Shown: in pieces, positions 15,241-36,286 of the stretch
How the letters are laid out: each line of letters opens with the position of its first letter
Position numbering within the stretch: position 1 is the stretch's first letter
Source: Candidatus Aenigmatarchaeota archaeon
GTDB lineage: Archaea > Aenigmatarchaeota > Aenigmatarchaeia > QMZP01
Assembly (NCBI GenBank): GCA_043824495.1
Contig: JBDRSV010000024.1
Location: 91,056-155,055 of the forward strand
Direction: 5' to 3'
Length of the DNA: 64,000 nucleotides
The notes under the pieces: model-generated
Seen by the model: only the letters and a program-made list of their open reading frames with translations
Database searches by the model: none
Told to the model about the DNA's origin: nothing
Translations under genes and position numbers: made by a program

Positions 15241-15264
15241 TATATCCCTCTAATTAGACAATAT
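15241..15264 (+). repeat. Junction motif copy b (TATATCCCTCTAATTAGACAATAT)
   Basis: Read directly from the sequence. AT-rich on the left, GC-richer block I2 on the right. Confidence 0.9.
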
Positions 15265-15267
15265 AAA

Positions 15268-15298
15268 ACAATCAGGTGCCGAGTGCACACCTAATTGT
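15268..15298 (-). terminator. Imperfect hairpin downstream of the last gene of block I2
   Basis: ACAATCAGGTG (15268-15278) pairs with CACCTAATTGT (15288-15298) with one mismatch. On the gene strand it is followed by TTTATATT. Confidence 0.5.
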
Positions 15299-15315
15299 CC
15301 TTGCCAATCCTCTTC

Positions 15316-16422
15316 TCATCTCAGCTTCAAAAACGCTATATGAGGTGCAGGCAGCCACTTGACTAACGATTCAGTCCAAGAGAAAGACCATTTCAGCTTC
15401 TTCTTCATCTCGTGAACCTTCATACATTTCACCGAGACTAGATTCCAGTTCAGGATGCCGAAAGCTGTGCCCAAGAGACCACCGACAAGCATAACGAAGC
15501 CCTGTCCTACAAGATCCATTCCGGCGGAGGAAACGAGAAATTTGTAAGCGAGAAATCCGCCCAAGACTCCGTCAACTGCACACAACACTCTCTGGAAACA
15601 GTGAACCATCTTGATGATGTTCCAGATAAACTGACCGATAAATGTGAGGACCACCGAGATGCACACCAAGACAACGAAAATGACGGTCAGTGCAGTGAGA
15701 ATTGGGTACCAGACAGAAAGTAGAAGCAAACTGAAGAGAATGTATCCCATCGCGTTGAGATACCCGAGTTTTATTTCTCGGCGGTTCTTCTCCTCAAGGA
15801 AATACCTCCTTCTTAACACACCGATGTCGTATTTTTGGTCCGTGTGTCTGCTTATTCCGAGAGCCTCCCCAATACTCTTATAGTTGTACAAAACGTCTTC
15901 CCCGCTAGCGTCTTTCTTATCGACCATCATGAAAGGATAGAAGAACCTTCCGCGATCACGACTTCCAACAAAAGCGAGGAAAGAAAGAACGCCGGAAAAG
16001 ATCACAACACAGGCACCAGAGAGCGCCAACAGAAGAATGCTGCTGAGAGCGAGTTGAAGGATGTTCAGTGTTTCAGCATCTGCGAAAAGACCGGAAAATA
16101 TGTGATGTGCTGGCCACAAGCCGAGCACAAGACTCGGAAAAAGGAACGGGTGTGGCTTCGAGCATAACCAGTCCTTGGCTTTTCCGTAGTTGTCTCTGAT
16201 ATAAAACGGCCAAGTTCCGATATCATCCAACATCTCTCCGAGCATCACTTGGATCGCTTTGGCCACCTCACGGAGGTCGTAACCAAAATAACCAGCTGCT
16301 CCGCCGGCCAGGAAAGCAGCAACCCACATGTACAACTTGTCCGGCATCAGCCACATGGCAGTTGCACAGAACACGATGCCTCCAATGAAGCATCCGATTC
16401 CGATCTTCATCCAATCTTTCAT
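15316..16422 (-). CDS. Hypothetical polytopic membrane protein
   Basis: 368 aa with multiple hydrophobic helices. No family recognised. Confidence 0.6.
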   Translation of the reverse strand: MKDWMKIGIGCFIGGIVFCATAMWLMPDKLYMWVAAFLAGGAAGYFGYDLREVAKAIQVMLGEMLDDIGTWPFYIRDNYGKAKDWLCSKPHPFLFPSLVLGLWPAHHIFSGLFADAETLNILQLALSSILLLALSGACVVIFSGVLSFLAFVGSRDRGRFFYPFMMVDKKDASGEDVLYNYKSIGEALGISRHTDQKYDIGVLRRRYFLEEKNRREIKLGYLNAMGYILFSLLLLSVWYPILTALTVIFVVLVCISVVLTFIGQFIWNIIKMVHCFQRVLCAVDGVLGGFLAYKFLVSSAGMDLVGQGFVMLVGGLLGTAFGILNWNLVSVKCMKVHEMKKKLKWSFSWTESLVKWLPAPHIAFLKLR

Positions 16423-16489
16423 GGCGAAAATCTCCTTCTCGTTGTATTTCTTTGTTTATAGTTATCGTCCTAGAATTAATTCAAAACAA

Positions 16490-17041
16490 TCATATCTGCA
16501 AAGGTTCAAGCAGATACATCAGACTTCGGTCTCGTAATTCTGTCCTCTTATAAGGAGGGAGATCTATGAGACAAAGACTGGAAATACTCACGTGCATGGT
16601 TTGATACTTGGTTTCGTCTGCTTGGTACATTCCCGTAAAGATTATATTATTCAGGACAAACCCGGAAACTACTGTCCAGATCCAGAATGCCATCCATCCA
16701 TCGTACAAGAAGACGCTGGCAATCGCTGAAATGATTGCACCCACTGCGAGAACACCTACCTCAAAGAGAAGCATCGTAAAGATATCTCCCACGGGGTCGT
16801 TTTTGTCCTCTTCCCACCAATCCTCCATGACGAGTTCGTGGATAATCATGTCAATGAGATTCTGCCTGTTCTGCATTTTCTCGTGGTAGGCTATGAAACG
16901 AGTTGGTTGACGAATGTTGTGCCAGATGATCAATCCAATTGGCACCCAGATGACTGCTGTAGTGACAAGCAGCCAGAGAACTACTCTAGTTTCCATGTCC
17001 CCTCCAGGATTGATTGTTAGAAAAAATACTAGTATAATCAC
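16490..17041 (-). CDS. Hypothetical membrane protein
   Basis: 183 aa with about 4 TM helices and a GTG start at 17039-17041. Confidence 0.5.
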   Translation of the reverse strand: MIILVFFLTINPGGDMETRVVLWLLVTTAVIWVPIGLIIWHNIRQPTRFIAYHEKMQNRQNLIDMIIHELVMEDWWEEDKNDPVGDIFTMLLFEVGVLAVGAIISAIASVFLYDGWMAFWIWTVVSGFVLNNIIFTGMYQADETKYQTMHVSISSLCLIDLPPYKRTELRDRSLMYLLEPLQI

Positions 17042-17221
17042 TCTCGTTAATTGACATTTCTGTCTTTCGTTGTCGTAGAGTATTGATTCCTAAATTACAG
17101 ATGATGACTTTACCTCGAACAAGAATCTTGTGCCAGGTGCTAAAAGTTGTCAGCGATGATAAATGTGGAACATGATGCATAGAATTTAACCTAAAATTTT
17201 ATAAACCTATACAAAACCTTT

Positions 17222-17244
17222 TTATACCTCTTAATTGACAATAT
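17222..17244 (+). repeat. Junction motif copy c, divergent (TTATACCTCTTAATTGACAATAT)
   Basis: 18 of 22 positions match copy b in my ungapped alignment. Lies 5 nt upstream of ATG 17250. Confidence 0.65.
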
Positions 17245-17249
17245 ATAGT

Positions 17250-17639
17250 ATGAAGAAAAAAGCAAAGAGGACCACAAAGAAAACAGTGAAAAAACCAGTC
17301 AAGAAAATAAAAATAGAAAAGAGAGTAACACCAAAACCAAAAAAAGAAGAGAAAATTAAATGTCCTTATTGTAAGAGTTCTAGAGTGGTTTGGAGAGGAT
17401 ATAGATACAACGAAAAGACTGACAAGCACTTAAGATTATGTAACAACTGTAAGAGAAAGTTCACAAAAAGAGACGAGTTCTTCCGTATGAGATTCGGTGA
17501 AGAAGAGATAAAAAGAGCTGTGGAATTATACAAGAAAGGTTATTCTTCTGCAGAAGTAGTTCAGAACCTGAAAAGAAATCATGGAATAAAGGTTTCAAGA
17601 TGGACTGTGATCTGTTGGCATAAGAGATACACTAAGTAA
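17250..17639 (+). CDS. Zinc-ribbon plus HTH protein, IS1 InsA-like / transposase N-terminal-domain-like, without a catalytic domain
   Basis: Lys-rich N-terminus, CPYCKS...LCNNCKRKF (CxxC...CxxC), then GYSSAEVVQNLKRNHGIKVSRWTVICWHKRY (HTH-like). AT-rich backbone composition. Confidence 0.6.
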   Translation: MKKKAKRTTKKTVKKPVKKIKIEKRVTPKPKKEEKIKCPYCKSSRVVWRGYRYNEKTDKHLRLCNNCKRKFTKRDEFFRMRFGEEEIKRAVELYKKGYSSAEVVQNLKRNHGIKVSRWTVICWHKRYTK

Positions 17640-17659
17640 TTATTTTTTTTATCAGTTAT

Positions 17660-17681
17660 TATATCCCTTTAAATGGACAAT
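17660..17681 (+). repeat. Junction motif copy d (TATATCCCTTTAAATGGACAAT)
   Basis: Read directly from the sequence. A T-run lies upstream and GC-rich block I3 lies downstream. Confidence 0.9.
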
Positions 17682-17686
17682 GCAAA

Positions 17687-17723
17687 GGGAGAGGTGCAGT
17701 ATTCCACATCTGCACACTCTCCC
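17687..17723 (-). terminator. Imperfect hairpin downstream of the T9SS-domain gene
   Basis: GGGAGAGGTGCAG (17687-17699) pairs with CTGCACACTCTCCC (17710-17723), with mismatches. Confidence 0.5.
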
Positions 17724-17754
17724 ACCACATCACCTTTTCAGGCTTTGCAGATTT

Positions 17755-19629
17755 TTACTTCAGAAGCGTCATCTTTTTGCTTTCCGTCAGGCTGGCCGTT
17801 TGCAACCGATAGAAGTACATACCGGACGCGACGGCCTTACCGTAGCGGTCGGTTCCGTCCCAGCTAACCTGATGTGTTCCTTCGGGCTGGGACCCGTTGA
17901 CGAGAGTGGCAACGTTGCGGCCGAGGATATCAAAGACCTCTAGCTTTACGTCTCCTCCCTGAGTCAACTGATAGGAAATCACGGTTCCGGCGTTGAAGGG
18001 GTTCGGGTAGTTCTGGTTCAAGCTGAATGATGTAGGAACGGCTCCTGTTGTCTTGTACGCGATGTTCAGCGTACCTAATGGAATCCACCCAGCCGGAACT
18101 GTCCGGCTGTTGTTGATCTCGTCAGCTATCGTTTTGGCCAACTCGTGATCGCCGAATGGATCGTCGATCAAGTTGTCGCAGTATGTTACCGCCTGTGACA
18201 CAGTCGCGCCGTCATCGCTAATCACAGCGGTTTGTGCCAGTTTGCCGCTAGCGACATTGAGTAGCAAAGCCATGAGTTGCTGTCTGGCTCGATCAATCAT
18301 GTCAACGCTGCCCTTGAGGTTCAGCAACGTCTTCGCGACTTCGAGCTTGTCTTCACAAAGATCCGACACGGGTGGATCGTACACGACGACCTCGTTCACT
18401 GCGTTCGAGTTGAAGTGGCCCGCGATGAGGTCGAGATAGCTACACAGAGTTGAAGCATCGATTTGCGCGCGGCCATTCCCACCAGTAGCGACGCCGACGT
18501 TGTGTTTCCAGAAGCCGATTGTTCGTTGTTCTCCAGCGTCTGACGGGCATCCCAATTCAAAGTCGATTTGGGCTGTGCCTTCACAATCGAGATCGACGGA
18601 CTGTTCGCTCGGAAATGCCGTATACCCGAGGGGGCCAACAAATGATACCATGTAGCTGGCCTCACCCGGGAGGTTCTCGAAATCGTAGTAACCGGCTTCA
18701 TCAGTCACAGCCGATTCTACAAGTACACCGGTGGCATCGAAGACATCAATCGTGATACCAAGAACAGAGCAGTCAGCACTCAGTGTGCCCTCAATTGCGG
18801 CGAAGCATTCTTCCTCTCCACCTCCGCATGCACACGTTCCATCTTCCACCTCAATGGCGGTGATGGTGTTGTCGTAGGCGTCCTTTGACCAGACGACGGT
18901 CAACGGCGCGAAGTTGATGACGTCGCATTCGAGATCCTCATCCCGACCACCGATCGTCGCGAAGTCACTGAGATACACGCCCGTTGTCTTGTCAATGCGA
19001 ACGATGTTGCCCAGACCATCGCGCCCGATGTAAAGGGTGTTCCCCGTCCCAACAATAACACCACTTATTCGATCCAGTGTATTGCCGGCCGCGTCGGTCG
19101 GATACAACGTTCCCAGATAGGCTCCCGAGCCCGCATCGAAGTGGTCAATGCCCGTTGATACATCATCGGAAACCCAGACACTGTTATCCGTCGCATCAAA
19201 GCCAATGCCGTCGATGAAACAGAAGCCCGGTGTTACCACAGAAAACTGGAAAGTGGCTACGCCGGTGGTGGGATCGATGAGATACACGTTCGCCGGACAT
19301 TCGTTGTCACTGCCTCCCCAGATCATGTTGCGCGTATTGTCCCATGCAATAGCGCCGATCGAAACTGGTGTGCCATCCGGTTTGAAAATGGAAACGAAGC
19401 CGAGATCGGTGCCGAATTTGTCTATCGAGTAGAGAGTTGGGTCGAAAGAGTTGGTGTAGAAAATCACACCATCACATCCAACTGCAACACCGATACCGAC
19501 ACCAGACGAGCTTGGAACAGGAACTGTGACGTTCGTGATGACATCACCGGGAGCTGCCATTGACGTAGCGGTGATAGCGGTGAAGAGGCAGAACACAACA
19601 AGCGCAGTGAAAGCTGTGAGACGCTTCAT
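17755..19629 (-). CDS. Secreted beta-propeller/CarboxypepD_reg-like protein with T9SS (Por) C-terminal sorting domain
   Basis: Signal peptide MKRLTAFTALVVFCLFTAITATSMA. The C-terminal NYPNPFNAGTVISYQL...VFDILGRNVATLV...GMYFYRLQT...KKMTLLK is the classic T9SS CTD pattern. GC-rich. Confidence 0.85.
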   Translation of the reverse strand: MKRLTAFTALVVFCLFTAITATSMAAPGDVITNVTVPVPSSSGVGIGVAVGCDGVIFYTNSFDPTLYSIDKFGTDLGFVSIFKPDGTPVSIGAIAWDNTRNMIWGGSDNECPANVYLIDPTTGVATFQFSVVTPGFCFIDGIGFDATDNSVWVSDDVSTGIDHFDAGSGAYLGTLYPTDAAGNTLDRISGVIVGTGNTLYIGRDGLGNIVRIDKTTGVYLSDFATIGGRDEDLECDVINFAPLTVVWSKDAYDNTITAIEVEDGTCACGGGEEECFAAIEGTLSADCSVLGITIDVFDATGVLVESAVTDEAGYYDFENLPGEASYMVSFVGPLGYTAFPSEQSVDLDCEGTAQIDFELGCPSDAGEQRTIGFWKHNVGVATGGNGRAQIDASTLCSYLDLIAGHFNSNAVNEVVVYDPPVSDLCEDKLEVAKTLLNLKGSVDMIDRARQQLMALLLNVASGKLAQTAVISDDGATVSQAVTYCDNLIDDPFGDHELAKTIADEINNSRTVPAGWIPLGTLNIAYKTTGAVPTSFSLNQNYPNPFNAGTVISYQLTQGGDVKLEVFDILGRNVATLVNGSQPEGTHQVSWDGTDRYGKAVASGMYFYRLQTASLTESKKMTLLK

Positions 19630-20175
19630 GGATTTTTATTCCTTAGGTTGTGAGGGAAATATGACCCTCCGGGTTTGTTTTTCGATTAGTTTCTGATTGT
19701 TTGTCGTTTACCACGTTTCCAAGTTAAGGTCCGCGAATCGCTATTTTCATTGGCATCCTCTCTTTGGGTTAATGTTGTCCGCACAAATTGCGGGATTAAA
19801 AGAAGGAAAGACACAAAAGATAGAGTATGTCTTATGTAGACTGAGAGTAAAATCATTCGAAGAATAAAGCTAATACTATTAAAACAAACATGCATGTTTG
19901 ATGTGTTTCTTTTCATGTTTTTTGTGTTAGCCAATGTACCGTTTCTATGGTTAATTGGATTGATTGAGTTGCAATCAATACAAATTTAAATGATGTTCGA
20001 ATGAGTAGCATGATTTAAATTGTATACAAAAATTGACGTTGATTCATCGTCGTTTTTTTGTGTTTTGGTATTTTTTTTGATTCTAGCTTGTCGCTTTTGT
20101 CAAGTCTTTAACTCAAGTATATAGCTTACAGGTATTTAAATGTTTTCTAACACATTTTTTTTAATTTTCTTTCTT

Positions 20176-20197
20176 TTATCCCTTTAAATAGACATAT
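20176..20197 (+). repeat. Junction motif copy e (TTATCCCTTTAAATAGACATAT)
   Basis: Read directly from the sequence. A T-run lies upstream and GC-rich block I4 lies downstream. Confidence 0.85.
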
Positions 20198-20206
20198 AAA
20201 AAGGCA

Positions 20207-20259
20207 AACGGGCGAAGATTTGGAGCCAAACTCTTCTTGATGTCTCACCTCCGCCCGTT
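20207..20259 (-). terminator. Compound hairpin next to motif copy e
   Basis: AACGGGCG (20207-20214) pairs with CGCCCGTT (20252-20259), with an inner GAAGATTTGG/CCAAACTCTTC stem. On the minus strand it is followed by TGCCTTTTTATAT. Confidence 0.4.
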
Positions 20260-21168
20260 AAATGCCGTTGTCCGGCCTATCAATTTACCCGCCGGTTAGG
20301 TGAGCACATGTGCTCGTGTCCCAGAGGCGCATGTTTTCATGCCCTCCTTTGCCGGGTTCTTACGCGAACGTGCTGCTTGACCGAGATAATGTAGCTGCCA
20401 GATTCCCCACAACCTTGTTATTGGTGGAACCGCGACAGCGGTCGGTCCAGTCCGTATGCATCGTAGCCTCACTTGGTGAAGGACTGCGAATCAAGAGACG
20501 GGGATTCAGAAGAATCCCCGTCTCACGAGTTGACGGTTGGTACGAGATATATCAAAGGAAGTCTTTATGCCATTGGGTGCATTCCGAAACCTTTAGCCTC
20601 GTCCGTCTCCGAGGGATCCTATCAAAGGTTTCATAAAGGAAATTTCATGGACCTCGTTACGATAGGATCGGAGTGGCGTAAAGCCACGGCCAGAACCTCG
20701 AGGTCCCCCAGGATAAGATCACCGTTTGAATATGAGTCAGCGGTGAACGTAAGGGTGCTGGCGATTCTTCTTCGCATTCAAACCCTCCAGGGAACACTTC
20801 GTAATTTGTGTTGTCAGCGGCTGTTTACGAATCGGCGGTGATCGTTTCCACCACGGTACATGTCGGCGTGGTGACAAACGATGAAGAAGCGACTTCAAAA
20901 CGCGCGCGGCCATTGCTCGGCGGCGGCGAATGAGCCCAGGCATTGACGGCGGTCGCGGCGGTATTCATCCAGGAAGCGACCACTGGTGACCCGCGAAGGG
21001 TCGGTAATCGGTTCATAGAGCAAGCTCCATTTCTTCCGATAGGAAAATTCCAATCCACTTTACAAACTCTCGCCTAAACAGAAAGTATTGTCACATAACT
21101 TTCCGTCGCAAAAGAGAATGTGAAGAGGAAACAATTTCGTACACCTCGTCAAGAGATCGTCTCCATTT

Positions 21169-21534
21169 TCACCCTACATGGGCTAGGCGAGAGGATAGAC
21201 CAGTTGCTGATAGAGATGTAGAGGGAACCGTTTTCATCCGAAGATCTCTCCCGTCCCTCAGGGAGTAAGTTGCTCGTCCACCAGGTTCCCATACCAAGGG
21301 AGCTGGCAACTCTGCCATTCTCTCTATCCGACTCTCTGTTGTCATCGCCACTACGGCAACAACTCTTAGCCTATCCGGCGTAGGATTATGAGAGTGTAGA
21401 GCGAATTCCTCGTTCCATGTTTGTTCTGTATCGCTGCCTGTTATGATATCCAATCCTGAAAACGGGATTGGGTCAGCGGTATAAACAATACAGGAACCAT
21501 ATATGAGGTAGCAGAGTGTCATGATTCCCAGCAT
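21169..21534 (-). CDS. Possible small secreted protein
   Basis: AAGGAG lies 5 nt upstream of the ATG, with a hydrophobic N-terminus MLGIMTLCYLIYGSCIVYTA. It is the only ORF in block I4 with a good RBS. Confidence 0.4.
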   Translation of the reverse strand: MLGIMTLCYLIYGSCIVYTADPIPFSGLDIITGSDTEQTWNEEFALHSHNPTPDRLRVVAVVAMTTESRIERMAELPAPLVWEPGGRATYSLRDGRDLRMKTVPSTSLSATGLSSRLAHVG

Positions 21535-23161
21535 GACAACTCCTTACAAGGGCACATGGTTATATGGTAAATGCTCTCTCCGTCAACAAATCGTGCCCTC
21601 TAAGACATGTTTAGGAGAGAAAGGCGACAACTCATGAAGTGTTCTTCAGGTGGACCCGTCATCACTGTTATTGCGTTGACGGCCTTCTCCTTGACCCGGA
21701 CTTAGACGTGTGGCTTTCGGTGTTTTCGCGGCGCGTTTCTGCTGTTTTGGACTACGCTTCTTGTTGCTCGGAAGCCCGTCTCGGGCACCACCGTGACACG
21801 TCATGAAAGACCTCGTTTGTGAGGAGTTCAGTTCAAGCTTGTGCTGGAACTGTTTGGAACGAGGAATTGTTACTCTTTACGGCGAGCGATTGTGTGTCAT
21901 CGTAACTCCTTGACAATGGTTTCCACAAGCTCCAAAATAAAAAAGAGCTGTTGTTTTCAAATTCAGTTGGGAATCTCCTAGCCCGCCCCCAGAACTGACT
22001 AGAGGAGATCCCCAACTTTTGTACAGCGCACCCCGTGCATTGTTTTCAGGGTGGAGGGGCCCGGCGGTCAACTGAGCCCCTCACTGGACGAATCGGTCAC
22101 AGATAACATGTTACGCATTACCGACTCGAAATCTATGCCACGGCAGTAGATGGAAGTGGTCGCATCTACCGCCGGGCTTCACGACGTTGTGCATTTTGTC
22201 GCCTTCAGCCTTACACAACGCCGTTATTTCCCCACCCACAGGGAATTTAATATCGCGGGGCCTCACTCAGGAGACCCCGCTTCCGTTGGGTTTACTACCG
22301 AATTGTTCGGTAGCGTTCTTCCACGACAGACATACGCACATGCGCACGTCTTCATTTCTTTGAGGACCTACTCATCTCCGATTTGAGTAGGTCCTCGGCT
22401 CCCCACAACCCCCCGATCAGCACCGGGAATTTTTTTGAGGGGAAATCTGAGCAGATATCTCAGACTCCCCTCCCGTCAGGTCTACCGACCAGCACTTCCG
22501 GTTGGACGCCGGAAATTCTTTATTAGAAGGGGTTTCCCCTCTCCAAGAAACCCCTTCCTCTTCGGCGTAGCGCGTCTCACGCGCTTTAGTGCATCGATCC
22601 CCACCGATCAGGTAAAACCCTTGGATGGTTCTCTCCCCGAACCCCCACTGAAATATTTTGGAACCCCTCATAGATCCCCGTAATCTCCGAGAGGTTCCGA
22701 CAGCAGCACCATACAAATGGGACTACCGTGACAATCAAAAATACCGGAATCCACCGCGTCAGAAGAGGATTCCGGTATTCTACATCGCTGGTTGTGTTGA
22801 GAGCTTACCCCTTACTGGTCTTAACGAGTATGTTACGTCGGACTTCCTTTCACCAAATATACGGGTCACTACAGAATACCCGATCGATCCGCTTTGTTGT
22901 CTTAATCTCACCAGCGGATAGTGACGCGGTTACAGCCAGCGATTTCGCCTTTATACAACAGGCGTCTCCAAACCAAAATGGAAATTGGAGTTGTTGCTTC
23001 CACACTTCCGGATTTCCCCCTCCGGTAAACTCTAAGGTACTGATAGGTGACCGCTCGTGTTTCTTGTGTTCGCAATTGCCGATTGCATCAAGCTCTTCGT
23101 AGATCTAGATCTGGAAGTAATTAGCAAACGATCACAATAAACAGACAACTGGGAGAAGTCC

Positions 23162-23788
23162 ATTTCTACCAGTACCTGGATTTTCTAACCCTCGGGAGGT
23201 GTGTACAAGCCTAAGCAGAGTTTGTCCTGTTGAATTGGCCCCGAGGGTAAGTGGCCTTCCGGAAGAGAATTGGTGAGGTCCTGTAACAGAACTCTATCTC
23301 ATTCCGGGGTAAAGCTCAAGGCACAGCCAGAAGGAGACGTATTACCTTGAGAAGTTGGTCTCCCGAGTGAAGAAATTCGAGATGTCCCATCGATGAAGGA
23401 CATCTCTTCTCCACTCGGGCTCATTCGTCAGCCTGGAAGGAGAAGTGCAAGAGTTTTCGCGCAATTACTCTCTCTCCTCCCGGGAAATTTATGACCTCCT
23501 GGTCCGAAACTTGTGCCGCGGTAAACCAGAAGGCGTAACTGCTAGGCTATGTGACGGCCACAGCAGTAGGGATCGAATCCAATACACGAAAGACAGCTAA
23601 GACTAACTCTGTCTCGTGTGGTTTACGAGTAAAATTCAGAAATCGATAGTCTTCGGCCTCTTCGAGGGAAACTGCTTAAGCGCTTAATTGCAGCGCGTTA
23701 TGTTTCCTGGTAAGTGACCTGTTCTCTAGGATGTACCGAAGGCTAACTTAGTTAGTCTCGGGAAATTCGCGTGTGATTGGTAGAAATG
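23162..23788. ncRNA. Candidate ~630-nt structured RNA (family unknown, strand undetermined)
   Basis: CATTTCTACCA (23162-23172) is complementary to TGGTAGAAATG (23778-23788). Internal helices include CCCTCGGG/CCCGAGGG and GAGATGTCC/GGACATCTC (23379-23406). No ORF. Confidence 0.35.
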
Positions 23789-23949
23789 AAACATGAAATG
23801 TCCTTATATATAAATGTAATTTAATTACTTAAATAGGTTGATGGATAGCTTTAAAAAGGTACTATTAAAATTATTTTTTTGTGAAGGGATCGATATACCA
23901 AGTGCTTCCAAAAATAAAGAGTAGAAAAAAATAAGAGTGAAAAAAGCAA

Positions 23950-25992
23950 TTAACCAATGAATTCAACCTTTTCAAAACTGCCGTTTTCTTCAAATTTGTC
24001 TAATGTTGATACGAAAATTATTACTTTTTTCTTGTCTTCTTTACAGATTCTAGCTGCTTGTTGTATTACCATGTTCTTGATTCTGTCTGAAGCACATATG
24101 AAATGATTGCTTTGTTTCAAGTCCTGATAAATTAATTCTCTATCATCTGTGTCTTCAACCATTATAGTTAATTCTTTTCCATCGTTCTGTAAATATATTC
24201 TGTTACCTTCTTGTTCACTCTTCCATCCGACTTCATTAAAGGTCTGCATGATACCTGTTAAGTTCAATTCTTTTTTCTGTGTTGAGTTACCAAATTTATT
24301 AGTGAAAACTTTCTCTCCTATATTTGTAAGAAAGTAATAACATAATCTATTCTTCTTAACTTTAGCATCAGCTGAATCAACTAATCCGTTATAAGTTAAG
24401 TTCTCAACCTTTTTCTTGAAAGTTGCTCCTGACATTTTTACATTTGTGTATATCTGAGATGTGTAAGCAGCACTACCATTACCAATGGTTTTCATCATAG
24501 CCCACTCTTGTTCTCCTAAATCCTCAATTGGAAGAGAGTTTATGAATTCTTCTTCCTTTACTGGAGGAGGTGAGTAGCTATCTTCTTTAGCTATTCTGTC
24601 TTTCATGTGCTCTCTGATATCATCATCTACAATAGAGTTCTTAACCAGTTTAGCCTTGTCGAATTTTACAAGGAATGGTTCTGGGAAATTCATAGAGTGT
24701 CTCAAAAGCATGAAACCGTGACCTACTGGCAGTCTTCTTAGATACTTACCTTCTTCTCTAGAATCAAGACCAAGCATGTTTGAAGCGTCTTGAATATCTG
24801 AAGTATGTTTTGTATCCAAACCTAGATTCATGTATATATGAGTAGAAGTATTACCAATTGCTGGATATGAAACTAAAGATGGATGCTGATCTATGTATAT
24901 CATTCCTAATCCTAATTCTCTAATTTCTCTAAATATTAATTCTACAACGGTTTCTGATCCTAATTTGGCAGATTTTTCTCTGTTAAGAACATGATGAGCT
25001 TCTTCCATCACTATACATCCTATGACTTCTTCTTTTCCGCCTTCTACGAGTAACCAATCTCTTATCCACTGTAGAATTATTTCTATGATAAAGCTCTTAT
25101 CATTAACATCAAGAGCATCTAATTCTAGAATTGTTACCTTTCCTTTCTTGAAGAAATCAGATGGTTTTATACCTTCTACACAGTCGAATATATGACCTGT
25201 GTCTTTGAAGCATAATGACTCTAATGGTCTTTCAGCTGTTGCTAACCAGTTTCTTTCTCTTGTTGGCAGCTTACCTTCTGCATATTCTGCTAAGTAATCT
25301 TTAAGGTCAAACAGTGTTGGATTTTTCTTTTCCTTGAAAACTCCATCTAAAGCTTTCAAGATTACGTGTCTTCCACCACCGAGTAACCAGTAAGAATGAT
25401 CGAATATTGAAGAGAACTCTTTCATCCACTGTGTTTGACTAATTCCTTTAGGACCTTTCAGTGGATTGAATTTGAAAGGAGCTACGCCTCTTCCGATTGT
25501 GTAAATATCTATTTTGTCTTTAATTTTAGTTGATAGTAAATCTTTATAATTTCTCTTAGAGAAATCAAATATCAAAACAGGAATATCCTTTTCTGCTAAT
25601 TCTTCAATTAAGTTATATGAAATATTTGTTTTACCATAACCAGATGAACCAAATATTCCTATATGTGTAAGTAAGTTTTTCTCTTCTAGCATGATTGGAT
25701 ATAAACCCTTTCTTCCGTATAAAACATCACCTAATCTAATTGTTCCTTTAGCTGCTGCTTCTTGGCTAGGAGGTTCCATTAGTACTGTATCTCTTAGATC
25801 TTCATCAGCAGAAACTGCGGCTTTTATAACATCAAGTAGTTCGAAGATTCTTTGTCTTACATCTTCGTTTCCAACTAAGTAAGCTTTACTTAATCTCAAA
25901 GCTTTGTCTTTACCCAAGATTGGAGTAAGCTTCTTAATTTCATCTGCAATTAGTTTTTCTTGAATATTAATCATTTGTACCACCCAAATCAT
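23950..25992 (-). CDS. HerA/DUF87-type P-loop ATPase with C-terminal winged-helix-like region
   Basis: Walker A GIFGSSGYGKTN and Walker B-like GCIVMEEAHHV. 680 aa. Confidence 0.7.
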   Translation of the reverse strand: MIWVVQMINIQEKLIADEIKKLTPILGKDKALRLSKAYLVGNEDVRQRIFELLDVIKAAVSADEDLRDTVLMEPPSQEAAAKGTIRLGDVLYGRKGLYPIMLEEKNLLTHIGIFGSSGYGKTNISYNLIEELAEKDIPVLIFDFSKRNYKDLLSTKIKDKIDIYTIGRGVAPFKFNPLKGPKGISQTQWMKEFSSIFDHSYWLLGGGRHVILKALDGVFKEKKNPTLFDLKDYLAEYAEGKLPTRERNWLATAERPLESLCFKDTGHIFDCVEGIKPSDFFKKGKVTILELDALDVNDKSFIIEIILQWIRDWLLVEGGKEEVIGCIVMEEAHHVLNREKSAKLGSETVVELIFREIRELGLGMIYIDQHPSLVSYPAIGNTSTHIYMNLGLDTKHTSDIQDASNMLGLDSREEGKYLRRLPVGHGFMLLRHSMNFPEPFLVKFDKAKLVKNSIVDDDIREHMKDRIAKEDSYSPPPVKEEEFINSLPIEDLGEQEWAMMKTIGNGSAAYTSQIYTNVKMSGATFKKKVENLTYNGLVDSADAKVKKNRLCYYFLTNIGEKVFTNKFGNSTQKKELNLTGIMQTFNEVGWKSEQEGNRIYLQNDGKELTIMVEDTDDRELIYQDLKQSNHFICASDRIKNMVIQQAARICKEDKKKVIIFVSTLDKFEENGSFEKVEFIG

Positions 25993-26515
25993 TAAAGATC
26001 TTTAAGATCTTATTTTCTGTTTGTAGTTGTTCCAGGAGCTCTCTTAGCTCTGTTTTTAATTCTAATCCATCTCTCCAAAAAAGAATATTTTCTTGTCTTT
26101 TTTCTTTTCTGAGAATAGAAACATCAAGTTTGAAATTTCTCTTTTCATCGATGTCTGTGATATGATTCATCATATCGTCTTTTTCTTCGATGTCTTCTTC
26201 AATTTCTTTTAAGAATGTTTTGTGGAGAACTTCTCTTTCTTTCATAGTGTTTTCAATTTCACTAACTCTTATTTGCAAGAATTCTACTTTATCGAATAAG
26301 CTTCCAATAACTAGAGGATCATCTCTTTTTAGAGCAGTGAGTTTACTTTCTTCAAATCTTGGCATTGATCTTTTCTTAATAATTTGAACTTCTCTAACTT
26401 CGGGTTCATCTAGATCAATCTCATCATGTCTAATTAAAGACTCACGTCTTCTCTTTTTTGTAATGTCTTCATACTCGTCAAGAGTTTTATAATAGGGTTC
26501 CATTAATCTGTCCAT
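25967..26515 (-). CDS. Coiled-coil protein, overlaps the start of the ATPase gene
   Basis: 182 aa, highly charged with a heptad-like E/K/L-rich sequence. Confidence 0.5.
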   Translation of the reverse strand: MDRLMEPYYKTLDEYEDITKKRRRESLIRHDEIDLDEPEVREVQIIKKRSMPRFEESKLTALKRDDPLVIGSLFDKVEFLQIRVSEIENTMKEREVLHKTFLKEIEEDIEEKDDMMNHITDIDEKRNFKLDVSILRKEKRQENILFWRDGLELKTELRELLEQLQTENKILKIFNDLGGTND

Positions 26516-27342
26516 AATAATTACCTCGAGTGACCATTTGTCACTATCTGATAGTTAAAATATGTATAAAGGGTTTATAAAGCTTTCGGTTAGCTTGCAG
26601 TGTGCTGTTTTTGAGCGTAAAAATCGTGTACGAAAGACAATTTTCTTGGGTTTCCATGACTTTTGTGCCAACGAAAGACATATTCTGTCTTTAGTAAGAG
26701 AGTTAATAAAGATTTCTGTCTCGCGCCTTATAAAGGATCCGAATTGGATATTTTATATAGTAATTAATTACTATTGTAGAGATCTTTATTTACTTAAGTC
26801 TTTACATAAATAATTCTCAAATACTTTTTGTCTTTGCTAAAGTTTAATGCAGATTTTCCTCGAAACTTTTGTGGAAATTCTTGAAATCAAATGTCTTCTA
26901 GTTTTGCTAGAGCTTTTGAAGACATGGAAACTCTCATAAAACCCCAACCGAAAAGTATTTAAACCCTTTGACTATAATTTCACTATAGATTAGTGACAAC
27001 AAATTAAGAAATGTCTGAGTTATGTGTGGTGTCAAATCCTACATAACTATCTTTACAATCTACGCAACTTTGAATAAAAAGAATTTCGGGTTAAACTCGC
27101 AATTCTAAACTCAGAGAAATTGAGTGCACAGGAATTTAGGCGCGGCCTAAAATCCCCATAAGAAATCCAAAAAAATGACACGCTTTGTGTCAAAAAATGT
27201 GATTTGAGGGGGTTTGATTTCCTTAGCTCTGAGTATCTACTTTTCGAAAACCACGAAGACTCGCGTAACAATTCTAAGCAATAAATATAGTGAAATTCCA
27301 GACTTCTGTAGACTTTCGCTGTCTGACATAGAAATTAACAAG

Positions 27343-27353
27343 TTGACAATAAA
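27343..27353 (+). promoter_or_regulatory. TTGACAATAAAC box (sigma70 -35-like), first of three copies
   Basis: The same box recurs at 29367 (CTGACAATAAAC) and 30278 (TTGACAATTAAC), each 35-55 nt upstream of a start codon. Confidence 0.4.
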
Positions 27354-27377
27354 CGGAAACTTCTGGGAGGGATTGTC

Positions 27378-27740
27378 ATGAGAAATATCATGAGCTGTGT
27401 TTTCCTGCTGCTCACATTATTCCTGGTGAGTTGTGCGAAAAGTGGTCCGGAGCTGGGGAGTGATATCCGGATCAGTGGAACAATCGTCGACATGAGCGAA
27501 GGAGGTAGTAGGGATTTCCTGATCCAGTCCGGAGGAAAACTCTACCATTTCGGTACTCGACTGCAATTTAAATGGAGTAAACTTCGTGCGGGACATTACG
27601 TCACCGTGGATGGGAAGTTTGGGGGACCGTGCGAGGAAGCCTCAATGTTCAGACGCTACATGTACGACGACGAAGGGAACTTCATCAAGTCCCTCGAGGT
27701 CTATGACATCATCCATGTTTCGAACGTGGAGAGGCAGTGA
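27378..27740 (+). CDS. Putative lipoprotein
   Basis: MRNIMSCVFLLLTLFLVSCAKSG (lipobox LVSC), with GGGAGGG upstream. Confidence 0.6.
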   Translation: MRNIMSCVFLLLTLFLVSCAKSGPELGSDIRISGTIVDMSEGGSRDFLIQSGGKLYHFGTRLQFKWSKLRAGHYVTVDGKFGGPCEEASMFRRYMYDDEGNFIKSLEVYDIIHVSNVERQ

Positions 27741-28098
27741 TCCCACTGAGTTCATCCAATTCATCGGGTGGACCCAGATGAGATTATTGTCTAAAGGCTA
27801 AATCAGCAGGCCTTGAATTGTTGGTAGGGATCATTGGAAGATTCCCAAAAACATGGCAAGGAGGGCAACATGTCGCAGGGAACCAAAAACACCAAAGACA
27901 CAGGAACAAGAGCGTTTCTGGTTATCGACGGAACTACAGGAGACCTCATTCCTGTGAAAGCATCGTCTGGACGAAAAGCTGAGCAAATCGCCGGCAGCGT
28001 AACCAGACAATCCCGCAAATAAAATTACCCACTGTGAATTCCCCAGGAGTATCATCCGCCCGGAAGATACTCTGTTCTCCCCCATACTACCATAGGCC

Positions 28099-28138
28099 AC
28101 ACGGAGCTCATCAGGTTTTCACTTGGTGGGCTCCAGTG
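28099..28138 (+). promoter_or_regulatory. Conserved intergenic hairpin element, copy 1
   Basis: CACGGAGCTCAT...GGTGGGCTCCAGTG. Shares the GAGCTCAT / GGTGGGC core with copies 2 and 3 but has a different, still complementary, outer stem. Confidence 0.45.
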
Positions 28139-28240
28139 AGATCTTTGGTGGTTAACGTTCCATAACCGTTTCATTCACAACCTTTTGCCGACCTTGTCTG
28201 CATTGCAGCTCAAGGAAGTGTGTAAAGGAAGGAGAGTGTC

Positions 28241-28942
28241 ATGTTATTGCATGTAACAGTAATAAGCCGCGGAGACAGAACAACGATCGATGTTCCCAGA
28301 ACAGAATTCAACTGGGATACCAATCAATGTCGCGTAGTTGAAGGTGCAGAGGAAGCTGAAAGAAATCTCGGGGTGGCGGAGAATCTCGAAATCCGTAAAC
28401 CCGCGGCTTACCAGGGACCCTATTTATACTGTATTGTAGAGGTGGGGTTCGAGGAAATTTGTTTTCCCCCGACTTTCCTCAAGTGGATCGAGAATGTTCC
28501 CGAGGATGAGAAAAGAGCCATCCTTATCGTTCCCACCAAAACCATCCGAAAGGCCGATGATAGTCACTATATGGGATCTATAGATCGTTATAGGTATTAT
28601 CCTCATGGTGAAGTCTTCCTGATTGGTCGCAGAATCATCGTGAGGAACATCTACCTATCACCTGATAACATCAAGATGGTGGTGGATAAAATCCTTGCCC
28701 GACTGAGTGACGGCCTGTTCCTCCGGTTGGCCTTTGAGTTTCTCCAGGCTACGCCGATCAGTGACAATCCTACGGTGACTGGAGAACATATCACCATGTT
28801 GGATAATCTCTTCACGGGGACGCGTTCCCTTCGGAGAGGAGATTCAACTCGTCGCGAACGGTTCAATCATGTTCGGGCCGTGATTGGACATATGGCCAAA
28901 CACGGGATAGTTCTGTCTGGCAAGATCGAACCCGTGAAGTAA
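28241..28942 (+). CDS. Hypothetical protein
   Basis: 233 aa with AAGGAAGGAGAG upstream. No family recognised. Confidence 0.6.
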   Translation: MLLHVTVISRGDRTTIDVPRTEFNWDTNQCRVVEGAEEAERNLGVAENLEIRKPAAYQGPYLYCIVEVGFEEICFPPTFLKWIENVPEDEKRAILIVPTKTIRKADDSHYMGSIDRYRYYPHGEVFLIGRRIIVRNIYLSPDNIKMVVDKILARLSDGLFLRLAFEFLQATPISDNPTVTGEHITMLDNLFTGTRSLRRGDSTRRERFNHVRAVIGHMAKHGIVLSGKIEPVK

Positions 28943-28995
28943 TCAACGGCTTGGAAACCAAGTCAAATCAACGACAATGAAAGTTGAGGTGTAAT

Positions 28996-29316
28996 ATGAA
29001 TAGGCGAATACAGAGTATGATTGTGATGACTGCGACTTTGATAGCTGTTGCAGTCTTTCTCCAAGTCTCACAGCTTCACGCGGCACATTTGATGGCAACC
29101 GCAATTGCAATTGCGGTTGTGGTGATGATCGTTGTTAACATGGGAAGAGTTCCCAACACTCGGCAGAAGTTTCGGAACTTCTCTGTCGGAGCCGTTTTCG
29201 GGAGCATCTTCCTGTGGGAGTTGTTCAAGGTTACGTTCTTGAATCACCCTGCGGCTCTTTGGAGTGTGGTTGTACTCGGAGCTGCGGCAGTCTCATTTCT
29301 GACGTTCCGCCGGTAG
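28996..29316 (+). CDS. Hypothetical membrane protein
   Basis: Three hydrophobic helices. GAGGTG lies 4-5 nt upstream of ATG 28996. Confidence 0.55.
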   Translation: MNRRIQSMIVMTATLIAVAVFLQVSQLHAAHLMATAIAIAVVVMIVVNMGRVPNTRQKFRNFSVGAVFGSIFLWELFKVTFLNHPAALWSVVVLGAAAVSFLTFRR

Positions 29317-29330
29317 TACTGAAGTTCACC

Positions 29331-29361
29331 GGGGATCCCGATCAATCTGGTTGGGATCCCC
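29331..29361 (+). terminator. Hairpin terminator (GGGGATCCC...GGGATCCCC)
   Basis: 9 bp perfect stem. A homologous copy lies at 30241-30273. Confidence 0.6.
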
Positions 29362-29414
29362 TCAACCTGACAATAAACTGTTGTTAAATGTTCCATTACA
29401 CCAAGGAGGGCGCA

Positions 29415-30233
29415 ATGCGTCACCAACGTTTCATCACCACAGTACTGGCACTCATGTTCTTGACTGTGCCGGCAATGTTCAGCAGTGCGGTTCTGGCCGA
29501 TCCGATTTCATCCGGAGACGGTCAAATGTATGTGGTCCAACAGGGAGATTGGTTGACGCGGCCGATCATCCCGACACTCTACTCGGATGTGTTGAAGCCA
29601 GGCGACTTGAAGAGTGCTCTCTGGATCGCTGACATCTTCGATACACTCAACATTAACATCACCCACCGCGACAAAATTCGGGCGTATGATACCATCATGG
29701 CGCCGTCATTCGCGGCGTTGAAGAAGTACAAACATCTCGCACCCGCCGACGTGGTCATCAACCTGTTCGCCACGTATGATATCGCGTCCATGGAACTTGT
29801 GGACGCCGAGTTTGTAAGAAAGCGCATCGAGGACTTTGAGGGTACTTACTGGTACAAAAATCGAGCCGCGTGGGCCCGAATTTTCGGAGTCGGTAATGGC
29901 ACGTATGTCTGCGGTGACACCGTGATGCCGTTCTCATGGTTCATGAGCTGCAATACGGACGGTAATACGGGAATGACTATCTCCATCTCCATGGACGAAG
30001 GAGATCTCACCGCAGTTCGCAAGGTTCCAGGTACACGTAACGGATTCTGGGGAGCCAGTCGTGACAATAAGTTCACATACGTGGGCTTCGGCAACGACTG
30101 GATCGATCGTTGCGACTGGAATGACGAGACCGAGAGCTGGGACATTCCACCAGTTCTGAATGAGATCGTCGGAACTCTCAACAACTTTCCATTCGTCCAG
30201 TATATGACCGTCGTCGCGTACGAACTGGAATAG
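29415..30233 (+). CDS. Hypothetical secreted protein (paralog of 30334..31659)
   Basis: Signal peptide MRHQRFITTVLALMFLTVPAMFSSAVLA, with AAGGAGGG upstream. The C-terminal half aligns with the next gene. Confidence 0.65.
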   Translation: MRHQRFITTVLALMFLTVPAMFSSAVLADPISSGDGQMYVVQQGDWLTRPIIPTLYSDVLKPGDLKSALWIADIFDTLNINITHRDKIRAYDTIMAPSFAALKKYKHLAPADVVINLFATYDIASMELVDAEFVRKRIEDFEGTYWYKNRAAWARIFGVGNGTYVCGDTVMPFSWFMSCNTDGNTGMTISISMDEGDLTAVRKVPGTRNGFWGASRDNKFTYVGFGNDWIDRCDWNDETESWDIPPVLNEIVGTLNNFPFVQYMTVVAYELE

Positions 30234-30240
30234 TTGTTAC

Positions 30241-30273
30241 AGGGGATCCTGACCAATTCGGTTGGGATCCCTT
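30241..30273 (+). terminator. Hairpin terminator, duplicate of 29331-29361
   Basis: AGGGGATCC...GGATCCCTT, followed by the same CAACTTGACAAT box. Confidence 0.55.
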
Positions 30274-30333
30274 CAACTTGACAATTAACGTAACATGTTA
30301 ACAATGAATACCAACAGAGAAGGAGAAAGTCAA

Positions 30334-31659
30334 ATGTGTAACATCATCATCCGTACCATCGTGGCACTGGCACTCATGGTTCTGATCGTGCCGGCCATCA
30401 CCAACATCGCAATTGCGGACGGAACGCCGTGTGGTCTCACCGTAGGTAATGGCAACGACATCGATCGCGACTTCGTTGCATTCCTCAACAAAGAAGGAAT
30501 CAGATGGTTAACAATCGAGGAATTCGTTGAGTGCTACTCCCAACTGATCGGTCCAGGTAGTACCATGTTGAGCACCACTCGGGGATATGGCTGGGGATAT
30601 ATTGACGTTCCTTTCAAGTTTGGCGATTCGGTCGCGTCTATAGTGAACATGGAGATCATGCCAGGCGTCCGGATCAATATGGCTTGGGATCAAGCGGTCA
30701 TCTTCTACAAATATGCGAATAATCATGGAATGCATATTCTGAAGAAGACGGAGAATGACCGTGAGGTTCCGGCCTGGAGCGGCTTGATTGATGAAGCTAC
30801 GGTGCGTCAACATGTCAACGGCTTCGAAGTGTCCGCGCAGATTCCGAGTGATGTTCTGGAATCGGATGTTGCGATTATCCGGATGCGAGATTTAAAGGAC
30901 GCCTACTTGGCCGAGAACACCGACGTTATCGAGTCTTACCTCATCGAGAAGTTTGACCTCGACGACGATTCCGAGCCGTATTCTGACAATCGGCCAAATA
31001 TATTTCATCGCAGTGGCGAAGTCTTACTGGACTCGGAGATGTTCTTCGTGTATGAAGGTCTGGAAATTCTCAATCTCATCATCAATGATCGGTGGATTGG
31101 TGTACGATTCCCCGGATCGACCTATATCCACTTCATCAACATCGGACCGAGAAAAGTCCACGACTTGAATGCCAACTTCGTCGAGACGAAAACTCCGAAC
31201 AACACCGGCGGTCAGATCAGTATCCCGCAGGATGTGATCGAAAAGATGACGTGGATCGATTCCGTCTATTCGGATAGGATGTCCCCGAATCCGATGTTAG
31301 GTTTCGGAAACGGTGAGTACCTGGCGAGCTCTGGGATCGTTTCGTTCGCGTGGGTTGCCTGGACCAACACCGATGGCAACCTCCAGTTCTATCTCAATGT
31401 TCTCCTTAACATTGATCATCAGGTGACGATCGAGACTGTGTCTCACTACGGTGGGCCTGATGTTTGGAGGGCGTGGAGTCCGAATCAGACCTGCACAGAG
31501 GTGGAGACTGGAAACGGCTGGTGTTATATTCACTGTTCCCAGTCGGAAAGTGGACCTCGAATCTGCGACTATAGACAAGCCTTGGACGATGCAGTCGCGG
31601 CGTTCAATGGCATCGATTTCTTCACGAACATGAAGGTGATCATGTACACGGTGAAGTAA
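30334..31659 (+). CDS. Hypothetical secreted protein (paralog of 29415..30233)
   Basis: Signal peptide MCNIIIRTIVALALMVLIVPAITNIAIA. GFGNGEYLASSGIVSFAWVAWTNTDGN aligns with GVGNGTYVCGDTVMPFSWFMSCNTDGN in the previous gene. Confidence 0.65.
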   Translation: MCNIIIRTIVALALMVLIVPAITNIAIADGTPCGLTVGNGNDIDRDFVAFLNKEGIRWLTIEEFVECYSQLIGPGSTMLSTTRGYGWGYIDVPFKFGDSVASIVNMEIMPGVRINMAWDQAVIFYKYANNHGMHILKKTENDREVPAWSGLIDEATVRQHVNGFEVSAQIPSDVLESDVAIIRMRDLKDAYLAENTDVIESYLIEKFDLDDDSEPYSDNRPNIFHRSGEVLLDSEMFFVYEGLEILNLIINDRWIGVRFPGSTYIHFINIGPRKVHDLNANFVETKTPNNTGGQISIPQDVIEKMTWIDSVYSDRMSPNPMLGFGNGEYLASSGIVSFAWVAWTNTDGNLQFYLNVLLNIDHQVTIETVSHYGGPDVWRAWSPNQTCTEVETGNGWCYIHCSQSESGPRICDYRQALDDAVAAFNGIDFFTNMKVIMYTVK

Positions 31660-31947
31660 AGCCGAACGCCACGAATTACTAATCCGCTCTTCTTCCCAAA
31701 GAAGTGTGGCTAGTGTGAAAGGAGTATGGGAAGGTTCCACAGTAGTAGCATCAACGGCAAAAAGTAAAAGACAAAAAAATGAAGGCCAAACCCGAGGAGG
31801 AACTCGAAGTGAAGACGAAACGAAGGTCATGCCAATATCCCATTTCGCCCATGATGGCGACTCATATTCTCATAGTCTGACCGGCCGCCGGCGACGCCAC
31901 GGGCCTCTTATATAGTTAGCGGGGCCCATCGCCAATGCAGTCAAAAT

Positions 31948-31975
31948 CCCGGGTAGGCTTCAACCCCTACCCGGG
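31948..31975 (+). terminator. Hairpin terminator CCCGGGTAGG...CCTACCCGGG
   Basis: 10 bp perfect stem. Confidence 0.6.
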
Positions 31976-31976
31976 G

Positions 31977-32028
31977 TTCCAAATGAGCTCATCTAGTTCA
32001 GATATTTTCTAGGTGGGCCCATTTGGAA
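31977..32028 (+). promoter_or_regulatory. Conserved intergenic hairpin element, copy 2
   Basis: TTCCAAATGAGCTCAT...AGGTGGGCCCATTTGGAA. Confidence 0.45.
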
Positions 32029-32092
32029 TTGTAAATGATTGTTGACTGTTCAATGAGCGTTCCGAAAGGAACATTGCAAGGAGATTTTTATC

Positions 32093-32557: not shown

Positions 32558-32579
32558 GTCCGCGACATCACCAACCAAT

Positions 32580-36222: not shown

Positions 36223-36250
36223 ACGACGCGATGGTAGTCTTGTTCCAATT

Positions 36251-36279: not shown

Positions 36280-36286
36280 GATTTGT

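Follow-up and report, generated by a model that had tools for sequence, protein, structure and literature searches.

The 64,000-nucleotide (nt) stretch of a Candidatus Aenigmatarchaeota genome analyzed here (DPANN archaea; GenBank assembly GCA_043824495.1, contig JBDRSV010000024.1, positions 91,056 to 155,055; hereafter the window) consists of an AT-rich, gene-dense backbone of ~33% GC, in which six blocks of 44–57% GC, termed A to F, are embedded. One of these, block D, is a 3.6-kb island free of sizeable open reading frames (ORFs) that lies next to the backbone gene of a HerA/DUF87 ATPase, which is directly upstream of it on the minus strand (Table 1). A preliminary description of this DNA had proposed that the ~630 nt at the right-hand end of the island form an RNA domain closed by a long-range helix. 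We find the observation itself to be real, although it was overinterpreted, and the 630-nt domain as defined is unsupported; the limits of the interval are not those of a unit, as it makes up the last sixth of the island and leaves out the most structured part, at 21900–23000. The island and the motif-bordered blocks match no known family tested and are more interesting objects than the 630-nt domain. The backbone encodes ribosomal proteins, RNA polymerase subunit D and arginyl-tRNA synthetase in addition to HerA, the closest relatives of HerA are all found in Candidatus Aenigmatarchaeota metagenome-assembled genomes (MAGs), and two window ORFs correspond to Aenigmatarchaeota MAG proteins deposited at NCBI from a 171,815-bp contig. 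Over 17094–29629 the window is matched with 100% identity by an independent Logan assembly of run SRR26275509, which consequently spans the junctions on both sides of block D.

Block D does not appear to have been overlooked as coding sequence. None of its ORFs exceeds 124 aa, and no long ORF was opened in the block when each stop codon was in turn read as sense. The median codon period-3 signal is 0.9 in block D versus 12 in the neighboring gene, and it stays at ~0.3–1.5 across the block outside a single 121-aa ORF (21169–21534, minus strand), which is called by two annotation pipelines and has a local period-3 signal of 4.6. This ORF matched only itself among 5.8 billion proteins, and the 124-aa ORF yielded only two weak matches, both to long proteins, among 1.84 billion representatives. 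A six-frame Pfam scan of the block returned no match at E≤1. Hidden coding is effectively excluded, and the preliminary description was correct in regarding its interval as non-coding. No tandem repeats, direct-repeat family or CRISPR-like repeats were found within 20202–23790.

A pronounced excess of hairpins characterizes the island. Perfect stems of at least 9 bp with loops of 3–40 nt number 21 in block D versus 0.5 in shuffled sequences (~40-fold), stems of at least 13 bp number 3 versus 0, and 300-nt windows fold with z-scores of -4 to -9.5 over much of the block, compared with about -1 in the adjacent coding block. In the most structured part, 21940–22960, the minus strand reaches a minimum free energy of -448.8 kcal/mol versus -362.9 for the plus strand, a gap of 86 kcal/mol. 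Furthermore, the transition-type mismatches within stems of at least 10 bp at 21900–23000 amount to 12 G·U pairs on the minus strand versus 2 on the plus strand, and the same count in block E, with its genes on the plus strand, gives 31 on the plus strand versus 16 on the minus strand. This asymmetry in G·U pairs and in energy speaks for structure at the RNA level on the minus strand. The island also contains a 14-nt perfect long-range inverted repeat, which is both less expected by chance and more stable to context than the 11-nt pairing of the preliminary description considered below, with pair probabilities of 0.39–1.0 per pair (0.63–1.0 in the helix core) in all contexts tested. A miniature inverted-repeat transposable element or small insertion sequence was considered as the source of the 14-nt repeat and rejected, as its flanks (gtgtagagcg/gttactcttt) show no target-site duplication and no second copy occurs in the window or in the loci compared.

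Searches for known families and for homologues of the island were uniformly negative. Rfam 15 gave no match at the gathering score in the whole window and, at E≤10, only three chance matches of small nucleolar RNA type (E of 4–6) between 19600 and 24000. The large ornate classes GOLLD, ROOL, OLE and HEARO, to which the interval was to be compared, were thus covered as far as Rfam holds them and none matched, nor was there any Rfam match to RNase P, signal recognition particle RNA, transfer-messenger RNA (tmRNA) or group I/II introns, in agreement with what had been noted before. ARAGORN detected neither tRNA nor tmRNA. No relative of block D was recovered from phages and plasmids by distant blastn, or by blastn and nhmmer from 128 motif-bearing metagenome loci and from the post-HerA syntenic regions of related genomes, and viral contigs searched for three exact hairpin patterns and for the boundary motif described below had no matches. 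Homologues of the 630-nt interval, the lack of which the preliminary description had named as a ground for refutation, were likewise not recovered from the sequence collections, the metagenome loci or the syntenic regions, nor by the searches made with translated ORFs. In the literature we found no description of the boundary motif or of these islands.

Both ends of the island carry features that would suit a transcription unit on the minus strand. The end distal to HerA adjoins a 27-nt motif, termed M. It has a 13-bp GC-rich stem, two positions of which are wobble pairs, and behind the stem a T-rich tail that merges into M. A GC-rich stem-loop followed by a T-rich tract, the arrangement that defines an intrinsic terminator, is thus present at this predicted terminator on the putatively transcribed strand. 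At the opposite end, a promoter-like box lies 98 nt past the stop codon of HerA, within the AT-rich spacer that separates this gene from the island. Related boxes (TTTAAATCTAAT, TTTAAAGCTAAC and TTTAAAGCTAAG) occupy the same place in loci L133, L135 and L001 (at about 12034, about 5762 and about 3700, respectively). In the window and in all three loci, this TTTAAAGCTA-type box, in the form TTTAAAGCTAWC or TATTTAAATCTAAT, is located just upstream of the gene-free region, and it could be the promoter of a non-coding unit.

Gene-free structured sequence occupies the corresponding position in related genomes as well. A search through HerA for closer strains gave relatives that are only 68–70% identical to it, with 68–69% for the HerA proteins of L133 and L135. 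In L133, arginyl-tRNA synthetase follows the copy of M that ends the gap, which reproduces the layout of the window minus its extra blocks. In L135, a four-gene, GC-richer cassette with M at its end separates HerA from a 3.9-kb region. No gene is called in the first 3.3 kb of this region, and the only two calls, close to its end, are short (97 and 59 aa). The L133 and L135 gaps are both without ORFs and without codon periodicity, and both are structured (z-scores reach -6 to -8, and long stems occur at 4.8 and 1.8 per kb, respectively), with G·U pairs favoring the HerA strand at 10:6 in L133 and 7:4 in L135. Rfam and ARAGORN found no matches in either gap. No sequence is shared between these gaps and block D, and the two have only M and a stretch of ~215 nt directly after HerA in common; this shared start holds the TTTAAAGCTA-type box. 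A further pair of loci from two other MAGs, L002 (10050–11375) and L046 (1262–2458), contains a 1.2-kb ORF-free region after a gene for a Zn-ribbon/helix-turn-helix (HTH) protein and M; its conservation is patchy, with 68% column identity and insertions or deletions the size of hairpins, and its convergent strand gives the better fold.

The motif that closes these regions is itself a recurrent feature of the window. Motif M (consensus TATCCCTTTAAWTDGACAATAYAAA) is present in six strong copies and one weak copy, compared with 0.24 matches expected in shuffles. Each strong copy falls precisely on one edge of a GC-rich block and is directed inward, every GC-rich block has one, and a GC-rich hairpin of unique sequence lies within a few bases after each copy. 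In five of five coding blocks, all genes are on one strand and converge on M, and a coding block read on its gene strand presents genes, a hairpin, a T-rich tail and finally M. The end of block D has the same structure, i.e., a hairpin and then TGCCTTTTTATATG on the minus strand adjoining M. The A-run at the junction of M and the hairpin varies in length. A scan of metagenomes for the extended consensus located M at 27 distinct sites, of which the window accounts for three and L002 for one. A hairpin begins 5–13 nt after the GACA of the motif at nearly all 27 sites, with a mean dG of -20 versus -13 for chance matches (the hairpin table for these sites excludes the M copy at 20175), and GC content rises downstream of M at most of the sites. 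Convergent ORFs of at least 150 aa that stop 28–232 nt after M are present in at least 12 of these metagenome loci, and the motif with its hairpin was also encountered at convergent gene junctions in many contigs (L009–L128, e.g., L023, L021, L115, L064 and L058), where GC content usually increases past the motif.

The genes within the blocks provide some indication of their source. The protein encoded in block C (624 aa) carries a type IX secretion system (T9SS) sorting tail. Those of its relatives that have a name come from Zixibacteria, and the nearest homologue is located in an ordinary bacterial chromosome; judged by these relationships, the blocks include at least one gene of bacterial type. 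Several other block proteins carry lipoprotein-type signal sequences, and we read proteins with such N-termini as bacterial-type. The convergent ORFs of the metagenome loci include one more T9SS-tail protein and several with lipoprotein-like N-termini. The dinucleotide signature of block D itself is considered below.

The weak copy of the motif, M', is found directly upstream of a gene for a 129-aa protein, which is thereby flanked by M' and M. This protein resembles only the N-terminal Zn-ribbon and HTH portion of IS6/IS1-type transposases, and the gene-plus-M arrangement is kept in L002 (about 11380–11720) and L046 (about 2460–2800). M' places TTTATA at -29 to -24 relative to the ATG at 17250, in what looks like a leaderless promoter, and because of this placement M appears to resemble an archaeal promoter core.

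Table 1. Coordinates of the island, its bordering motif and the features referred to in the text (window numbering unless a locus is named)
Feature	Position	Strand	Remarks
Block A	1–3000		GC-rich; includes M32 carboxypeptidase gene
M copy	3004–3033	-	borders block A
M copy	15241–15267	+	borders block B
Block B	about 15270–17040		GC-richer
Weak copy M'	17221–17247	+	directly upstream of Zn-ribbon/HTH gene
129-aa protein gene	17250–17639	+	flanked by M' and M
M copy	17660–17686	+	borders block C
Block C	17690–19700		GC-rich; Zixibacteria-like T9SS-tail protein gene at 17755–19629 (-)
M copy TTTATCCCTTTAAATAGACATATAAAA	20175–20201	+	borders block D, points into island
Block D	20202–23790		about 50% GC, 3.6 kb, ORF-free; holds 630-nt interval at right-hand end
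Terminator-like hairpin (predicted)	20207–20259	-	M-proximal island end; followed by TGCCTTTTTATATG on - strand
14-nt perfect long-range inverted repeat	21404–21417 with 21855–21868		437 nt apart
Most structured part of island	21940–22960	-	string of ~23 consecutive unrelated stem-loops
5' arm, long-range helix CATTTCTACCA	23161–23171		pairing of chance quality, context-dependent
Local hairpin	23189–23247		CCCTCGGG (23189–23196) with CCCGAGGG (23240–23247); in minimum-free-energy fold
Long local hairpin	23362–23419		~21 bp, internal loop; main source of the interval's fold signal
Its outer arms	23362–23373 with 23405–23419		CCCGAGTGAAGA with TCTTCTCCACTCGGG
Its enclosed arms	23379–23387 with 23398–23406		GAGATGTCC with GGACATCTC
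Local hairpin	23585–23618		CACGAAAGACAG (23585–23596) with CTGTCTCGTG (23609–23618)
Small hairpin	23680–23696		GCGCT-TAATTGC-AGCGC
3' arm, long-range helix TGGTAGAAATG	23778–23788		at GC-to-AT boundary
Promoter-like box TTTAAAGCTATC	23844–23855	-	AT-rich spacer between HerA stop and island; points into island
HerA/DUF87 ATPase gene	23950–25992	-	backbone gene directly upstream of block D on - strand
Block E	about 27300–36280		9 kb, GC-rich; genes on + strand
M copy	36282–36309	-	borders block E
M copy	56967–56993	+	borders block F
Block F	about 57000–59100		GC-rich
L133 gap	12014–14325 of L133		2.3 kb after HerA, no called gene; ends at hairpin and inward M
L135 region	5723–9610 of L135		3.9 kb, ends at M; between four-gene cassette and M

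Several of these properties were computed directly, namely the non-coding status of the island, its hairpin excess, the strand bias of 21900–23000, the architecture of motif and hairpin, and the positional counterparts. From these we infer that the island is transcribed, where its transcript starts and ends, and whatever function it may have. Our preferred reading, which is tentative (probability roughly 0.45), is that an insertion hot spot holds a variable, long non-coding transcription unit and that the 630-nt interval, rather than being a discrete domain, forms its HerA-proximal end. Transcription of the minus strand would start from the promoter-like box in the spacer after HerA, the transcript would fold during synthesis into many independent local hairpins, and it would presumably end at the terminator-like hairpin and the T-rich tail merging into M. 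The interval would then correspond to the first ~630 nt of this unit. The hot spot would retain its ends as its body, 2–4 kb of ORF-free structured sequence, turns over, a view suggested by the unrelated ORF-free structured sequence that relatives hold at the same place, and by the GC-rich gene insertions bordered by the other copies of M.

A number of points weigh against the proposal of a minus strand transcription unit. As the counterparts in L133 and L135 share no sequence with block D, a common function does not follow from their position, and the lack of any homologue among the sequences searched means that the island has no covariation support. In addition, M itself has the look of a promoter core, and one oriented the opposite way, toward the island along the plus strand. 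The plus strand is C-rich in 21900–23000, such that composition may explain part of the G·U bias there, and a hand estimate that allows for composition puts the bias at p of about 0.03. Within the region that includes the interval itself (23000–23800), the G·U positions in stems number 3 versus 2 between the strands and show no bias. Many of the stems are perfect Watson-Crick palindromes that would form equally on either strand or as DNA, T5–T7 runs occur on both strands inside the island and could stop archaeal polymerase short of 3.6 kb, and the dinucleotide signature of block D is intermediate between backbone and GC-rich blocks and leaves its donor ambiguous.

Some of the same points are what one would expect if the hairpins acted as DNA or were relics of foreign or fast-evolving DNA, such as protein-binding sites, recombination sites or leftovers of a donor, with no role as RNA. 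Perfect palindromes of 11–15 bp have the same stability on either strand, and the fold z-scores are strongly negative on both. The GC content of the island is foreign-like, it is bordered by the same motif as blocks with foreign-looking genes, it is absent from relatives, and its only gene-sized ORF is an orphan. We nevertheless consider this explanation doubtful, since the asymmetry of G·U versus A·C and the 86 kcal/mol gap within 21940–22960 point to selection on an RNA strand, and the same strand preference is seen in L133, L135 and L002/L046. Moreover, a gene-dense genome such as this would not usually carry useless DNA in multi-kb stretches, yet such regions recur at the same place in several genomes.

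Alternatively, the island could be a stack of truncated, motif-directed captures, each entering 3'-end first and in one orientation, with its hairpin and U-tract against the A-run of M. Many of the captures would be no more than short 3' pieces, which would add up over time to an array of unrelated hairpins devoid of ORFs. The one-strandedness of all five coding blocks, with their 3' end, hairpin and T-rich tail against M, would fit such a process, as would the variable A-run, the convergent ORFs near M in at least 12 metagenome loci (some of them bacterial-type), and the accumulation of unrelated stem-loops with a G·U bias on one strand. However, the internal hairpins of block D are mostly followed on the minus strand by A-rich rather than T-rich sequence, and half-copies of M within the block do not exceed expectation. 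Neither a reverse transcriptase nor a recombinase was identified among the window ORFs scanned, and no donor sequence was found for any piece among phages, plasmids and the 128 metagenome loci. A stack of captures is decidedly unlikely on this evidence.

The proposal from which the analysis started, that 23161–23788 is a discrete, functional RNA domain of ~630 nt, closed by the 11-bp helix with its G·U extension, and represents a new large ornate RNA, is very unlikely. All of the nested helices described within the interval are present, as is the exact complement of the 5' arm at the end of block D, where GC-rich sequence does give way to AT-rich sequence; the 5' arm exists too, although it occupies 23161–23171 and not 23162–23172 as first given. 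Nonetheless, in 300 dinucleotide shuffles of the 3.6-kb block, a perfect 11-mer inverted repeat with arms 100–1000 nt apart arose in 44% (mean 0.71), and the whole window contains 30 such pairs versus 27.7 ± 10.3 in shuffles, which bears out the caution, voiced at the outset, that the match might be fortuitous. The helix contributes -12 to -16 kcal/mol out of about -219. Its pair probability is ~0.97 on the plus strand with 60–260 nt of flank, up to 22900–24050, but 0 on the minus strand in 22900–24050 and on both strands in 22500–24300. A pairing of chance quality that vanishes with wider flanks does not delimit a domain, and the 11-bp end-to-end pairing is most likely a fortuitous complement.

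The interval is structured all the same. It folds better than its dinucleotide shuffles on both strands (z of -3.4 on the plus and -6.5 on the minus strand; 0 of 20 shuffles fold as well), and the shuffled controls suggested in the preliminary description were thus not equally stable. Almost all of this signal derives from 23300–23600 (z of -3.8/-5.6), whereas 23100–23400 is at background (-0.5/-0.2), and so are the first 240 nt of the interval. The native fold energies of the two strands are nearly equal (-217.3 and -217.5), from which it follows that the structure is essentially Watson-Crick only, and that the larger z-score of the minus strand is due to shuffles that fold worse rather than to a better native fold. 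A closed domain would accord with this fold excess, with the high helix probability in the narrower plus strand contexts, with the placement of the 3' arm exactly at the GC/AT boundary near the inferred minus strand start, and with the 14-bp long-range pair elsewhere in the island, which indicates that long-range pairing there may be real. Against these stand the frequency of equal pairs in shuffles, the zero probability in wider contexts, the absence of an Rfam match, a homologue or a G·U bias, and the background-level first 240 nt. As for a coding region missed through a recoded stop, frameshifts or recent pseudogenization, the 121-aa ORF called by two pipelines with its local period-3 signal of 4.6 can be cited in its favor, but with no long ORF on stop reassignment, low period-3 elsewhere, no Pfam matches and ORFs without real homologues, it is hardly tenable.

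Comparison with known systems reveals only partial parallels. The ornate RNA classes GOLLD, ROOL, OLE and HEARO are roughly 0.3–0.8 kb in size, compared with 3.6 kb for the island. Like them, the island is long, ORF-free and GC-enriched relative to an AT-rich genome, and it folds well below shuffles. Unlike them, it has neither a covariance-model match nor a sequence family, its positional counterparts are unrelated in sequence, and in place of a conserved multi-junction architecture it presents a string of near-perfect local hairpins. The end structure of the blocks resembles an intrinsic (Rho-independent) terminator, having a GC-rich hairpin and then a T-rich tail on the strand of the converging genes. 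Unlike ordinary terminators, however, the tail runs into a 27-nt sequence conserved across genomes, and the internal hairpins of the island are without T tails on the minus strand.

Two mobile arrangements offer further comparisons. Archaeal integrons are relevant here, since attC sites have been reported in Aenigmatarchaeota (Ghaly et al. 2022, PMC9668308). Like integron cassette arrays, the blocks are co-oriented units of foreign composition with an imperfect hairpin at the 3' end, among which block D would be the ORF-less one. In contrast to integrons, they have a one-sided 27-nt motif rather than a 7-nt core, and they measure 2–9 kb and contain several genes. An integron was tried as an explanation and rejected, given that no pair of R''/R' cores (RYYYAAC...GTTRRRY) 35–135 nt apart occurs in the island or the window; no IntI-type or other recombinase domain was detected among the 46 distinct window ORFs scanned. 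The blocks also recall the translocatable-unit arrays of IS26/IS6, in which direct copies of one sequence lie between captured foreign segments, and a protein like the N-terminal DNA-binding part of IS6/IS1 transposases is encoded beside the motif. Unlike in those arrays, only a 27-nt motif is repeated, the 129-aa protein has no DDE catalytic domain, and neither terminal inverted repeats nor target duplications were observed.

Several other features of the window deserve mention. Block E contains intergenic hairpin repeats at 29328–29378/30239–30289 and 31971–32031/32607–32668, the copies of which are 84–96% identical and resemble repetitive extragenic palindromic (REP) elements. A PD-(D/E)XK nuclease is encoded at 36936–37589 on the plus strand, ~630 nt from the M copy that closes block E, and by eye its cysteines near both termini suggest a Cas4-like arrangement. 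The AT-rich backbone encodes a type IIG restriction-modification enzyme similar to Eco57I/MmeI (39330–42056, minus strand) and an IS5-family transposase (44028–45038, plus strand). Finally, an 841-aa ORF at 47035–49560 on the minus strand may be a housekeeping enzyme with an intein, a resemblance seen in its ...CFTINDN... start and ...VHNTD... end only.

As a 630-nt RNA domain the interval is a weak candidate, and no new RNA class is to be claimed from it. What makes the locus unusual is its setting, a gene-free stretch of 3.6 kb packed with hairpins inside a densely coding backbone, together with the presence, at the same place in relatives, of unrelated gene-free structured sequence framed by a conserved box and the 27-nt motif. 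It is conceivable, albeit unlikely, that block D and its counterparts are part of an undescribed acquisition system of Aenigmatarchaeota. In such a system, M, perhaps bound by the Zn-ribbon/HTH protein, would serve as the entry point at which largely bacterial nucleic acid is inserted 3'-end first, and the islands would be captured non-coding RNAs or stacked truncated captures that are expressed as long structured RNAs. Phylogenies have so far been the only basis for inferring heavy gene transfer from bacteria to DPANN archaea (e.g., PMC8407114). If M marks a dedicated site of entry for foreign DNA or RNA, it would supply a concrete and testable mechanism for this transfer and, in addition, indicate one origin of archaeal long non-coding RNAs.

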